64,000 nucleotides of DNA from a virus (Duplodnaviria > Caudoviricetes), in the IMG/VR virus record IMGVR_UViG_3300037714_000266, positions 1 to 64,000 of that record; one strand, written 5' to 3'. The notes under the pieces are model-generated. The model worked only from the letters and a program-made list of their open reading frames with translations, was not told the DNA's origin and ran no database searches. This document shows, piece by piece, positions 1-10,829 of the stretch (the stretch's first letter is position 1; each line of letters opens with the position of its first letter). The translations under genes and the position numbers were made by a program.

Positions 1-8
1 CCTCCGAT

Positions 9-358
9 CCTCCATCTCCTCCTAAGCGCCGCCGTCCTCCATCTCTACTAAAAACGTGTCTCCGCGGTCCCCATCTCTCCTCCATCTCCCACGATACGAA
101 GCGTCTCCGACCCACTCCATCCTACTCATGATCTCATAGCTAGCGTCCCCTCCACCTCCATCTCACCCTGAACGCCGCCGATGATCTGTTCCCTCCATCT
201 CCTACTGTCTGATCCTCTAACTCGTCACGTACTTCCCCGACCTCCATCTCCCAGTCTGCGGATCCCCTCCATCCAATTGAAAACCCTGGTCCTCCACTCC
301 TACCGTTTTCAGCCTCCTCCTCCATCTCATGCTGCCTCCAACCCACCGCTTCTCCATC
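9..358. repeat. Non-canonical short-repeat array: CCTCCATCTC (GAGATGGAGG on minus) separated by unique 15-39 nt segments; may continue left of the window
   Basis: Exact copies start at 9, 36, 79, 155, 192, 241 and 319; degenerate copies near 68, 113, 266, 291 and 351. The array begins directly after the stop codon of the TnpB-like gene. Confidence 0.8.
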
Positions 359-1864
359 CTAGTTCGCGACCTTTGGACTGAGTTCGCTCAGATCGCGACC
401 GAGGAGGTTCTTGGCCGCTGCGATGTCGAGGTGCTCTCGATACTTGCACTTGGTGCACGACAACTTCCACCTCACCATGTCGCGGTTCTTTTCGTCAGTA
501 TGGCCGCAGGACGGGCATCGCTGTGAGATGTACTTCGGATCGAGTGAGATGACCTCGATGCCCGCCTCTTCGCAGCATGAACGAATCCGCTGCTCCAACT
601 GGTAATACGGCCACTCCTGAATGAGTTGCACCACGCGTTCGTTGGCCAGATCGGTGTCGCGGATCTTGCTGAAGTCTTCGACGAGAAGGGTCTTGACCCC
701 GCGCTGGTCGAGCCACCGAACCAGTCGCCGAGCGATCGTCTGACATTTGGTGGCGCGCCACCTAGCAGCCTTGTCCATCAGCGGCTTGGTGGGACGAAGG
801 ATCCTTTTTCGTCCGCGACCAGAGCGCGCAGAAGCCTTTGAGTCCCACTGGTACTTCTTGCGCCGAGTCTGGATCTGCTTGAGGTAGGCGATGATGTCGT
901 TCGCGTCGTAGATCCACCGCTCACCGTCGTCGACCGCGCACGCGAGAAAGGTACGGATGCCTCGGTTGATGGCAGCGGTCTTCCCCTTCGACTTTTCCTG
1001 GACGAACCTCTTGTACGAGAACTTGAGGTGCCACCGGTTCTTTCGATCCCGTTCGATCATCGCGTCGCCGTGTTTCCACGTCCCGTTGGCAATGTTCTTG
1101 AGCACCGTGCGCTGGTAGGCGTCGCGTGGCTGAACTCGAACTCTCCACCTTTGACCCCGGCCACTCCTGAGCGTGAAGTCGACCATGTAGTCTTTGCTGG
1201 CCTTATCGTCGGCCTTCACGATCCTCACTTCCTTAGCTCGTAGCGGTATGGGGCAGGTGTCGCGGTAGTGTGGCGGCGAGCAGGACTGGCGAACCAGCGC
1301 ATCGTACCGAGTCTGAACCCACTTCTTCCACGCCGACCGACTTGCCACGGCCGCCATCGCGCCGGAGATGTCCGGACTGGCGGTTCGCGCGATCTTGTAG
1401 ACATTCAGCTTGGAGTCAGGCCACTCCTTCTTGGTCTTTGGCTTTCGGCCGTGCTCTCGCACGAACTCGTCGAACATGGCCCCCTCAGCCGCCCACAGCG
1501 CCCGTATGACCGCATTCTTGCCCGAGGCTACGTCGCGCTGTGTTTGGTACAACTCGCCCTGAAGCGCCTTCCACGACTCTCCACTGGCGCTCTCGTTGTT
1601 GCCCCCCAGGGAGCACGCGAAGCGAGAGTCGAGTTTCAGTCGGGCCGTTGCACGTACGATCGGGGTAGATCCAGAAGGCTCCGCATCAGTGGCGCAGTTG
1701 TGTCCCGACGCTTCCTCGCCTTCAGGGTGTGGAGGCACCCTGTTGGAACCCGCTGACGCGAGTTTAGTAGGAGTGGCCGTCGCAACGGCCTTGTTAGCGA
1801 GCACATCAGGGCTTTCTTCCACCGGGCTCAATGATGCGGAACCTACTGGATCTATCACCGTCAT
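359..1864 (-). CDS. tnpB: TnpB/Cas12f-like RNA-guided protein, predicted nuclease-dead (RuvC-I D->N)
   Basis: C-terminal half has the TnpB layout: AINRG (normally G[IV]DLG), LLVEDF, WPYYQLEQRI, DPKYISQRCPSCGH, CTKCKY, LDIAAAKNL. The true start is uncertain because the first ~70 aa are low-complexity. Confidence 0.85.
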   Translation of the reverse strand: MTVIDPVGSASLSPVEESPDVLANKAVATATPTKLASAGSNRVPPHPEGEEASGHNCATDAEPSGSTPIVRATARLKLDSRFACSLGGNNESASGESWKALQGELYQTQRDVASGKNAVIRALWAAEGAMFDEFVREHGRKPKTKKEWPDSKLNVYKIARTASPDISGAMAAVASRSAWKKWVQTRYDALVRQSCSPPHYRDTCPIPLRAKEVRIVKADDKASKDYMVDFTLRSGRGQRWRVRVQPRDAYQRTVLKNIANGTWKHGDAMIERDRKNRWHLKFSYKRFVQEKSKGKTAAINRGIRTFLACAVDDGERWIYDANDIIAYLKQIQTRRKKYQWDSKASARSGRGRKRILRPTKPLMDKAARWRATKCQTIARRLVRWLDQRGVKTLLVEDFSKIRDTDLANERVVQLIQEWPYYQLEQRIRSCCEEAGIEVISLDPKYISQRCPSCGHTDEKNRDMVRWKLSCTKCKYREHLDIAAAKNLLGRDLSELSPKVAN

Positions 1865-1873
1865 AACTAACTC

Positions 1874-1903: not shown

Positions 1904-2527
1904 TCATTCGCGAGGGACGTGTTTGTCGCAGCGGTAAAACCGGGAGATGCCAGTGCCCCACTCCCACCTCGCCCGATTACTGCACCAGTCACAAGTCGTC
2001 ATGCCAGGCTCATACGCCACCCACCCATCAACCACCGCCTCTCTCGTGTCGGGGTCGGCAGGCGGTAGCTTCTCCAGCCAGAAGGCGAGATCCAAACTCG
2101 CCTGCCGCATCGAGCGTATGCACTCGGAGCACGTGACGGCCTCGGGTTTGGTGGCGAAGTAGTCTTCCTTGGACGACCGGCCGCACCAAACCCGCAATCC
2201 TCCCAACTCATGGGGCGATGCCAGAAAAAAGTGTGTGACGACCTTCCTGATCCTCAGCAGTGCAGTTTTTCTCGCGACAACCGTTTCACCATGAGCGTTT
2301 CGTTGGGAACAGCGGGACACATCAGGGTTCCCGAAGTCTTCGAGCGCCTCGGCGAGTTGCTTATGGAGAGTGTTGGTATGAGGACGGGACCACCTCCCCA
2401 GCCGATCCACAATCGCCGTCGCAGCGCAGTCGGAGCAAATCGAACCCAACACCGTTGAGTTTCCACAGTCGCATTTAGAATCTAAGGGCTTCCTGAATGT
2501 CACGGAAGCTTCCACTCTTTTGGCCAC
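1904..2527 (-). CDS. Hypothetical protein with Cys-rich segments and a C-terminal C..C...W...YRCDxHVP module
   Basis: 207-aa ORF in tight operon packing. Confidence 0.6.
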   Translation of the reverse strand: MAKRVEASVTFRKPLDSKCDCGNSTVLGSICSDCAATAIVDRLGRWSRPHTNTLHKQLAEALEDFGNPDVSRCSQRNAHGETVVARKTALLRIRKVVTHFFLASPHELGGLRVWCGRSSKEDYFATKPEAVTCSECIRSMRQASLDLAFWLEKLPPADPDTREAVVDGWVAYEPGMTTCDWCSNRARWEWGTGISRFYRCDKHVPRE

Positions 2528-3036
2528 GGGCGAGTGTCGTCACCCTGAACGCCGCCGATGTGATCGAAGTGGAGATTCTCCCAAAGCTGGCGAAGGAGAT
2601 CTAACCGCGCACGCTGTCTGATGATGGCGGCATTCCTGCGAGGCGAGGCGGCGCTACGTGAGAAGGTGTCTGTGTCATGGATCGTCTCTTCGACACGCTT
2701 GGCAATCCAGACGCGCACGCTTTCACACGAGGCGTCGAAACCTGACGCGAAGTCGTCCTTGTACTTTTTTGGGAATTGACGAAAGCCCACTGCGGAAAAT
2801 CCCTCAGTGAGAGGCTCTAGGCTTGAGGGTCGAAAGGCGCGGTAACCTGGTTTCGGGTATGGAAAATCGATGTGCCAAAACCCGTACCTGTCTAATCCGA
2901 CGACCTCACCCTCGCGGGCGTGCATCGGGTGACCCTTCAGGTTCACCCTGACTCGCTGACCAACCTGAAAGATGGGTCGAAGCAGCAGGTGACGTGGCTC
3001 GATCACGTCATTCGACTCGGTCATCAGAACGGCCAC
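2500..3036 (-). CDS. Hypothetical protein with an SH3/KOW-like N-terminus
   Basis: FQVGQRVRV...EGEVVG pattern; overlaps its neighbours operon-style. Confidence 0.55.
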   Translation of the reverse strand: MAVLMTESNDVIEPRHLLLRPIFQVGQRVRVNLKGHPMHAREGEVVGLDRYGFWHIDFPYPKPGYRAFRPSSLEPLTEGFSAVGFRQFPKKYKDDFASGFDASCESVRVWIAKRVEETIHDTDTFSRSAASPRRNAAIIRQRARLDLLRQLWENLHFDHIGGVQGDDTRPWPKEWKLP

Positions 3037-10185: not shown

Positions 10186-10388
10186 CGACCCAGTCCTACC
10201 GCAATCCAAAACTCAGACTCTTCATGAGCCCGTCGTTGCTCGATGCGTGCCTTGCCGCGCTTGCGCAACTCGTAAAGCGCGAGTCTCACTGCGTCCTCAT
10301 CGGCGCCCAGGTGATCAGCTAGGATCGGGAACGTTGTCGGTCCCACCTCACTGAGCGCCTTCTTGACCTTTTGGTAGAGGGTCGCCAT
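10182..10388 (-). CDS. Small winged-helix-like DNA-binding protein
   Basis: LADHLG...AVRLALYELRKRGK pattern. Confidence 0.5.
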   Translation of the reverse strand: MATLYQKVKKALSEVGPTTFPILADHLGADEDAVRLALYELRKRGKARIEQRRAHEESEFWIAVGLGR

Positions 10389-10829
10389 CAGTCCTCGTAA
10401 GCAGGACAGAGTTCGCCGTCCTCATTGATCGCCCAACCATGGTCATCATGAGGAGCGGGACAGAGTTCGCCGCGCTCATCGATCGTCCAACCTTGGTCTC
10501 GACATGATTGAACCATGTCGTCGTAGGACTCGGATGCTGTCGAGTGCACCTTGGCCTTACAAAGGCGACAGTACACGACCAGAAAGGTCGGACTGGAATT
10601 GTGGAAGATCGGCATCAGTCGCTTCCGTGGGCGGGGCAGATGTACTCCACGCCCTCGTCGTCGATCGTCCAACCCTGATCCCGATACGACTGGATCAGAT
10701 CGTTGTAGGTCTCTTCGAGATCCTCGAACGCAGCCTGCTGCGAGGTGGTGCATCCGTTAATGTCACAGACCAGGTTGATGAACATCGGCATCGTGGTTTC
10801 CTTTTACGTTGAAGGCGCCTCGTTGCCCT

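Follow-up and report, generated by a model that had tools for sequence, protein, structure and literature searches.

Guides of Cas12f effectors have a dual-RNA design in which repeat and anti-repeat make two contacts. Truncated repeat-spacer units have been described for Cas12k, where the att-targeting unit combines about 13 bp of the repeat 3' end, the part that pairs with the tracrRNA, with a 17-bp spacer, is as long as a processed crRNA, is located at the distal array end or past it, and works with a non-cutting effector (Hsieh & Peters, bioRxiv 10.1101/2021.02.06.429022). The dCas12f-σE and CRISPR-associated dCas12f cluster comprises RNA-guided DNA binders with an inactivated RuvC, some of them encoded beside arrays (Hoffmann et al., Nature 2026, PMC13472631), and the Cas12-U proteins of V-U24 are described as having a noncanonical RuvC-I site and an HTH protein as partner (Altae-Tran et al., PNAS 2023, PMC10691335). 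Regulatory mini-arrays and cr-like RNAs are repeat-like elements whose spacers partly match their own locus or neighboring genes and which regulate instead of cleaving (Shmakov et al., bioRxiv 10.1101/2023.03.03.530964).

Here we describe a locus at one end of a phage contig from sediment metagenomes. The window analyzed, 64,000 bp long, corresponds to bases 1-64,000 of a 78,175-bp contig, with window base 1 at the contig end. Matches to baseplate wedge, tape measure and tail fibre proteins identify the contig as that of a tailed phage; Cas1-Cas2 are absent. By our analysis, the phage probably encodes a tandem series of ready-sized guide RNAs, to be used by a DNA-binding protein that is missing one cutting residue.

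A short-repeat array adjoining a Cas12f-like gene

The left end of the window contains three adjoining or overlapping features:

1 to 334, minus strand: at least 14 truncated repeat-spacer units with remnants of 10-14 nt, sense GUAG-GAGAUGGAGG, running past the contig end
335 to 370 (read 370 to 335), minus strand: full-length 36-nt repeat R0, spanning the stop codon of the Cas12f-like gene at 359-361
359 to 1864, minus strand: Cas12f-like protein of 501 aa, the longest ORF, with Pfam domains OrfB_IS605 (PF01385) and Cas12f1-like_TNB (PF07282)

The seven exact copies of a 10-mer reported in the first-pass annotation were confirmed. The 10-mer, CCTCCATCTC, occurs on the plus strand with starts at 9, 36, 79, 155, 192, 241 and 319 (within 9-328), whereas shuffled sequence contains 0.22 copies on average and 2 at most, and it is missing from the remainder of the 78,175-bp contig when both strands are scanned. 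Degenerate copies are also present, although their number, first put at about five, is six when one or two mismatches are allowed (span 68-344). The short repeats are therefore real, but their geometry, first given as a bare 10-mer with a period of 25-49 nt, had to be redrawn: the conserved unit is GTAG plus the 10-mer (10-14 nt), the sequences between remnants are 6-35 nt and end-to-end distances range from 5 to 49 nt. Most short units bear unique sequence of 13-35 nt; several gaps between remnants are only 5-10 nt, which is too short for guides, and at least 17 GGAGG-type ends fall within 372 nt, several of them back to back.

The plus strand of the array region is strongly C-rich (GC skew about −0.57), so that the strand of the Cas12f-like gene is purine-rich over the array; read on that (minus) strand, the 10-mer is GAGATGGAGG. 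In the first-pass annotation, the region had no convincing protein and the repeat no hairpin. The motif is translated in three ways in the small minus-strand ORFs that cross the array (EMEE, GDGG and RWRW), corresponding to all three frames, which rules out a coding repeat, and the sense RNA of the array folds no better than shuffles (z +0.75). Neither Tandem Repeats Finder nor an Rfam search at E≤1 gave a match to the array region.

The short repeats had been thought to begin right at the stop codon, but this position is straddled by the full 36-nt repeat R0. The 5' end of R0 is of the GTCGCGAAC type and its 3' end is GGTTGGAGG. R0 is homologous to the 36-nt repeats of L001 and L012, two of the 39 related loci that we fetched for comparison (designated here by L numbers), and clearly so for L001; after R0, the window array consists of short units only, indicating that the 10-mer is the 3' end of a CRISPR repeat. 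The regular direct repeats of about 23-55 nt and spacers of similar length that define classic CRISPR spacing were not found in the window, where a single repeat has the full 36 nt. The array does lie on the same strand as the effector gene, adjoins it and is homologous to the arrays of orthologous loci.

Extending the contig leftwards, a check proposed at the outset, was informative: an 84-nt unitig present in two sediment metagenome runs adds one further unit to the left of base 3, so the array is longer than the window shows. The array itself probably broke the contig assembly. Inside the array, a higher-order duplication of about 150-165 nt is visible, in which the remnants stay identical and the flanks have diverged, suggesting that the array grows via segmental duplication while the remnants remain unchanged.

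The Cas12f-like protein and its family

The neighboring gene had been taken for a dead TnpB. By sequence, the protein is closest to Cas12f and not to a transposon TnpB, its closest solved relatives being AsCas12f structures (E 1e-35 over residues 97-488; the PDB 8J3R, 8J12, 7WJU and 8DZJ group); a weak match to PDB 9N9C was also seen (E 1e-4). The conserved protein core begins at about position 1660. The protein has the Cas12f/TnpB-like fold with a zinc-ribbon TNB domain but not an intact Asp-Glu-Asp triad: in the alignment to AsCas12f, the catalytic first RuvC Asp corresponds to Asn300 (codon 965-967), and Glu396 and Asp480 are retained, giving an Asn300-Glu396-Asp480 site.

A search of 5.8 billion proteins recovered 59 metagenomic relatives with 33-62% identity and one 99%-identical member (P0001), and many of the relatives' contigs are 40-140 kb long. 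The first RuvC position is Asn in 53 and His in 6 of all 59 relatives, and Asp in none. Judging from this one substitution, the Cas12f-like protein has presumably lost cutting, although an Asn-Glu-Asp site could keep some activity. No relative or related system was found in a scan of 185,579 bacterial and archaeal species genomes. In IMG/VR, a single-protein query returned nothing and an alignment query returned two loci, and among 50,697 phage records a DNA search gave no relative and a protein search gave only distant IS605-type matches.

Comparison with contigs of three other sediment samples revealed seven differences, all of them in the gene at 677-1157 (481 nt), and none in the array or in the other parts of 17-1500. 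This cluster of differences, which we considered to carry little information, could be a recombined patch.

Arrays at related loci

A search for arrays beside homologous genes, which the first-pass annotation had suggested, gave a clear answer. Wherever downstream DNA was present (about 20 loci), a repeat cluster begins 10-35 nt past the true stop on the same strand, with repeat 3' ends homologous to the 10-mer. In L012, L014, L016-L020, L021, L026, L033, L034, L038 and L039, these clusters are ordinary CRISPR arrays with a period of 70-76 nt, in which repeats of 32-36 nt alternate with unique spacers of about 36 nt; the array of L012 has more than 25 repeats. The 3' end of the related repeats is TGGAGG, TGGAAG(G) or TGCAGG, and the 5' end is often GTCGCAAC or GTCGCGG.

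Several of these arrays combine long and short units. In L014 (3029-3356), L021 (5466-5870), L013 and L001, the distal part consists of shorter units, 28-43 nt in length, in which only the final 12-16 nt of the repeat are left. L010/L015 have short units exclusively, in two arrays, one of which is on the opposite strand and co-oriented with its own flanking genes, and L012 has an additional short-unit array upstream. The short-unit form recurs in at least five diverged loci, where it stands beside intact genes and intact helper RNAs.

An overlap of repeat and gene end may also exist in other members of the family. The tails of L012, L014, L021, L026, L033, L034 and L039 contain a nucleotide-invariant GCTCGCAAAC in an otherwise variable basic C-terminus, and this sequence resembles the repeat 5' end. 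Its codons (GCT, AAA) are expected to be uncommon at this G+C content. It seems that a degenerate first repeat overlaps the gene end across the Cas12f-like family, much as the omega-RNA overlaps tnpB.

Two further kinds of repeated element were observed at these loci. L012 has three near-identical promoter-like elements with an embedded inverted repeat (1966-2000, 2689-2725 and 2962-2998), each with a TTGACA-type −35 and a TACAAT/TACGAAT-type −10; they precede an HTH gene, a small ORF and the Cas12f-like gene, which suggests a shared operator for the three. Other dense short-repeat clusters, composed of 8-mers in 11-23 copies, occur at L017:1498-2014 and 10353-10593, L034:4921-5605 and L029:3169-3806. 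The two clusters of L017 flank the locus in opposite orientation, and the 8-mer clusters of all three loci are unrelated in sequence to the CRISPR repeats.

A conserved helper RNA with two predicted contacts to the repeat

On the sense strand 5' of the protein core, about 20 loci have a common arrangement of an invariant box, GCTCGCYAA, a hairpin, 10-13 nt of single strand and a second hairpin, resembling a tracrRNA and referred to here as the helper RNA. The corresponding features of the window are:

1747 to 1802, minus strand: helper-RNA core, with the same layout in 19 of 19 loci and different stems
1802 to 1794, minus strand: invariant box GCTCGCTAA, part of the helper-RNA core
1790 to 1775, minus strand: hairpin 1 with a UGCG loop, part of the helper-RNA core
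1776 to 1767, minus strand: anti-repeat CCACUCCUAC, pairing with the locus's own repeat
1764 to 1747, minus strand: hairpin 2, part of the helper-RNA core
1723 to 1742, minus strand: module a hairpin with a 7-bp stem and the loop CCUCCA (1735 to 1730), complementary to the repeat's terminal UGGAGG

When hairpins were counted across loci by script, hairpin 1 had at least 5 bp in 19/19 loci, compared with 11% of shuffles, with about 17 different stem sequences and with loops of the UUCG, GNRA or UNCG type on the sense strand. RNAalifold on a MAFFT alignment of the helper RNA recovered only part of hairpin 2, because stem lengths differ.

The anti-repeat is matched to the repeat of its own locus. 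Perfect complementary runs between the two are 6-12 nt long (mean 9.0), whereas against the repeats of unrelated loci the mean run is 4.4, with a run of at least 8 in just 1 of 124 pairs; duplex energies are −22.1 kcal/mol for own pairs and −17.9 for cross pairs. In the window, the anti-repeat pairs 10/10 with the unit ending at 291; with the main unit it forms 10 bp around a single bulged A. By energy, the window's match does not exceed shuffles, and only its homologous position makes it convincing. An energy scan for an anti-repeat, run over the gene and its 3' region, pointed to no consistent site; the anti-repeat was found 5' of the protein core.

A second contact involves module a, which across loci is followed by TGAAGGCGAG and whose six-base loop covaries with the last six bases of the repeat. 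The loop CCUCCA accompanies the repeat end UGGAGG in the window, L001, L009 and L013, AUUCCA or ACUUCC accompanies UGGAAG in L012 and L016, and CCUGCA accompanies UGCAGG in L033, L030 and L031; CCUCCA is also the loop in L003, L007 and L022, the repeats of which were left out of the covariation. Related loci share both loop and hexamer states, so that these pairs represent few independent changes, about two to four. Complementarity between repeat and anti-repeat, as expected of a tracrRNA, was thus found computationally in the window, where the anti-repeat (1776 to 1767) forms 10 bp with GUAGGAG(A)UGG and the loop (1735 to 1730) forms 6 bp with UGGAGG. From these pairings it follows that the 10-14 nt retained by the short units are exactly the two segments predicted to contact the helper RNA.

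The helper RNA overlaps the annotated reading frame. The first 65 or so codons of the 501-aa ORF (1661-1866, minus strand) fall on the conserved helper RNA; what look like protein motifs there, P-x-G-E and E-x-S-P-x-x-L-A, are translated conserved RNA boxes, and there is no in-frame start codon between module a and the core at 1660. The region 1661-1866 may therefore serve as an RNA gene and be translated as well. In L001, gene calling places the start past the helper RNA. The order of the modules differs between loci, module a of the window (1714-1742; compared with L001:3808-3990) following hairpin 2 and that of most loci standing ahead of the box, hairpin 1 and anti-repeat.

Probable strand and transcription of the array

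One further feature bears on how the locus could be expressed:

1874 to 1901 (read 1901 to 1874), minus strand: promoter-like TTGACT-16-TACGAT, preceding the helper RNA, gene and array

With this promoter-like site upstream and no terminator-like site on the minus strand between gene and array, the helper RNA, gene and array could share one transcript. We infer that the RNA strand is the strand of the gene. Antisense transcription of the array was considered since the self-match described below abuts the repeat on the plus strand, and was judged less likely on four counts: the tetraloops are of the sense type, a few G-U pairs (L009, L015) would become A-C in the antisense RNA, the sense 3' end of the repeat is the part retained, and the second array of L010 is co-oriented with its neighbors.

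Spacers and a match within the phage genome

The only match found for a spacer lies within the same contig:

163 to 183, minus strand: part of a spacer plus 2 nt of the next repeat, identical to 2540-2560 (21/21, blastn-short E 6e-6)
2540 to 2560, minus strand: genomic copy of the 21-mer, 13-33 nt upstream of the GTG start (2527) of ORF 1904..2527

On the sense strand, the self-match comprises the last 19 nt of a 27-nt spacer and 2 nt of the following remnant, and allowing a 2-nt CA deletion extends the likeness by five bases. The match is thus repeat-distal and does not run from the first base of the spacer, as it does in units of the Cas12k type; the 8-10 nt beside the spacer's own remnant, the position of a type V seed, mismatch the site at 2540-2560, which makes the phage's own copy unlikely as a working target. 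A diverged paralogue of this spacer is present at 19-35 as part of the 150-165 nt duplication. Two readings of the self-match remain. The spacer may be directed at a rival phage's version of the gene, with the seed differences sparing the phage's own copy, or it may be a functionless copy taken from the phage's own genome.

Searches for external targets gave no matches. An exact scan of IMG/VR with four window spacers found nothing, and 412 spacers from related arrays, compared with all fetched loci, had no convincing target. The genomic copy of the 21-mer also lies within the 3' end of the orphan ORF 2500..3036, the protein of which has no homologue on record. ORF 1904-2527 (minus strand), the start of which is directly preceded by the self-match, lies directly upstream of the system and encodes a 207-aa cysteine-rich protein without a family match.

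A proposed explanation and its rivals

We propose that the locus is a minimised CRISPR array of a phage-borne, dual-RNA type V system with an Asn-Glu-Asp Cas12f-like effector, a reading to which we give reasonable, though far from full, credence. On the minus strand of window 1-370, one full 36-nt repeat would lie over the stop codon and later units would keep only its last 10-14 nt. The helper RNA, gene and array would be co-transcribed from the promoter-like site at 1901 to 1874; each unit, consisting of a remnant and the spacer 3' of it, would pair with the helper RNA and load the protein as a ready-sized guide, and the guide-loaded protein would bind matching DNA, blocking it instead of cutting it. 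Units appear to form by segmental duplication and not by Cas1-Cas2. The first-pass annotation had suggested a minimal guide array for the dead nuclease. The guide-array part of that suggestion is supported by the canonical CRISPR arrays that homologues have in the corresponding position and strand, by arrays of mixed long and short units and by complementarity to the helper RNA; the claim of a wholly new architecture is not, as truncated repeat-spacer units have been described for Cas12k (bioRxiv 10.1101/2021.02.06.429022). Counting against the guide-array reading are the irregular spacing, the gaps of 5-10 nt and the fact that the only target found is a self-match whose geometry is not that of a working type V guide. 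A stronger form of the proposal is that tandem processed-size units, each with a 10-14 nt two-contact repeat and a short spacer, are a selected architecture made by duplication and capture, which provides a fixed set of silencing guides for the Asn-Glu-Asp binder alongside or instead of ordinary arrays; this we put forward tentatively, as a possibility that we would not yet back.

Two of the rival explanations accept descent from a CRISPR array. If the short units were deletion and duplication debris without working guides, the irregular spacing, the gaps of 5-10 nt, the degenerate copies and the segmental duplication would be expected, as would the finding of no external targets and of one self-match with a mismatched seed. 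However, seven remnants have stayed identical over 10 nt though their flanks diverged, the bases retained are exactly the two segments that pair with the helper RNA, the short-unit form is found in at least five diverged loci with intact genes and helper RNAs, and a 25-49 nt period cannot come from 72-nt units by point mutation, so we consider debris unlikely. Alternatively, the remnants, most of them without a usable guide, might act as decoys that titrate the helper RNA and effector, either for autoregulation or to sequester a related host effector. All of the GGAGG-type ends counted above, 17 or more in 372 nt with several adjoining one another, are able to pair with the loop and anti-repeat, and phage repeat-like RNAs acting on Cas proteins have been discussed (bioRxiv 10.1101/2023.03.03.530964); such a role is nevertheless improbable given that most units carry unique sequences of 13-35 nt, that long arrays of the ordinary kind occupy this place in relatives and that no related system was found in the 185,579 species genomes scanned.

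The remaining two explanations dispense with guides altogether. Short direct repeats clustered at a contig end could be DNA iterons, that is, sites bound by a protein in replication, packaging or partition close to a genome end, but this is very improbable because the end is an assembly break and not a demonstrated genome end, and because the related arrays lie inside contigs; in about 20 loci, repeats homologous to CRISPR repeats keep a fixed strand and position relative to the effector gene. The other explanation, offered in the first-pass annotation as an alternative to the guide array, is that the purine-rich RNA is a CsrA/RsmA sponge or Shine-Dalgarno decoy, in keeping with the many GGAGG and AUGGA motifs on the sense strand. 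Relatives, however, have a GGAAG- or GCAGG-type hexamer in place of GGAGG, and the helper loop changes to match, which indicates that the conserved property is pairing and not likeness to a ribosome-binding site. The GGA-in-hairpin-loop structure of such sponges was not seen in the array RNA (z +0.75), nor was there an Rfam match to a CsrB/RsmZ-type family, and we regard the sponge as scarcely tenable.

If the units of the guide array work, the natural lower limit of a type V repeat would be about 10-14 nt, the length of its two helper-RNA contacts, and a phage could pack many guides into half the usual space without a repeat processing signal. If the proposal is true, miniature Cas12f-type binders could be supplied with compact multiplex guide arrays modeled on this one. 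The mixed long and short arrays and the position of the helper RNA over the gene start bear on how array and tracrRNA came to be separated out of one TnpB guide RNA. Arrays of this kind escape standard CRISPR finders, and the guide repertoire carried by phages is therefore probably undercounted.

Comparison with described systems

Several features recall TnpB omega-RNA and TldR, including ancestry, a guide 3' of the scaffold, guide DNA over the gene 3' end and the existence of dead derivatives that repress. TnpB and TldR, however, use a single scaffold-guide RNA without an array, whereas here the scaffold is split off and lies 5' of the gene; in place of the single omega-RNA-like guide of a TldR, with its target in a neighboring host promoter, we found an array and a separate scaffold RNA in a phage locus. 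The self-match brings to mind the cr-like RNAs, but these pair via a PAM-proximal seed and the self-match in the window is at the opposite end of the spacer.

Among Cas12 groups, the Cas12f-like family may be V-U24, going by the description of that group: the RuvC-I of the family is noncanonical, and an upstream HTH gene was seen in one of the loci tested, L012. The dCas12f proteins of the σE-associated and CRISPR-associated cluster (PMC13472631) differ in being C-terminally truncated without RuvC-III, whereas here only RuvC-I is altered and there is no sigma factor. With type V-F AsCas12f, the system has in common a small effector, a downstream array and no need for adaptation genes nearby; it differs in having Asn or His for the first RuvC Asp in every family member, a helper RNA placed at and across the 5' end of the gene and, in the window, truncated repeats.

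The nearest parallel to the units themselves is found in Cas12k of type V-K CAST, where, as here, a tracrRNA-pairing remnant of the repeat 3' end is joined to a short spacer distal to a normal array. Cas12k elements have one such unit each, with a 17-bp spacer that perfectly matches a tRNA attachment site, whereas the window has at least 14 tandem units with spacers of 6-35 nt, no long units after the first and no matched target; the window locus also belongs to a lytic-type tailed phage and its effector to a different clade. As far as sequence comparison can tell, the array is a multi-copy variant of the truncated unit type already described.
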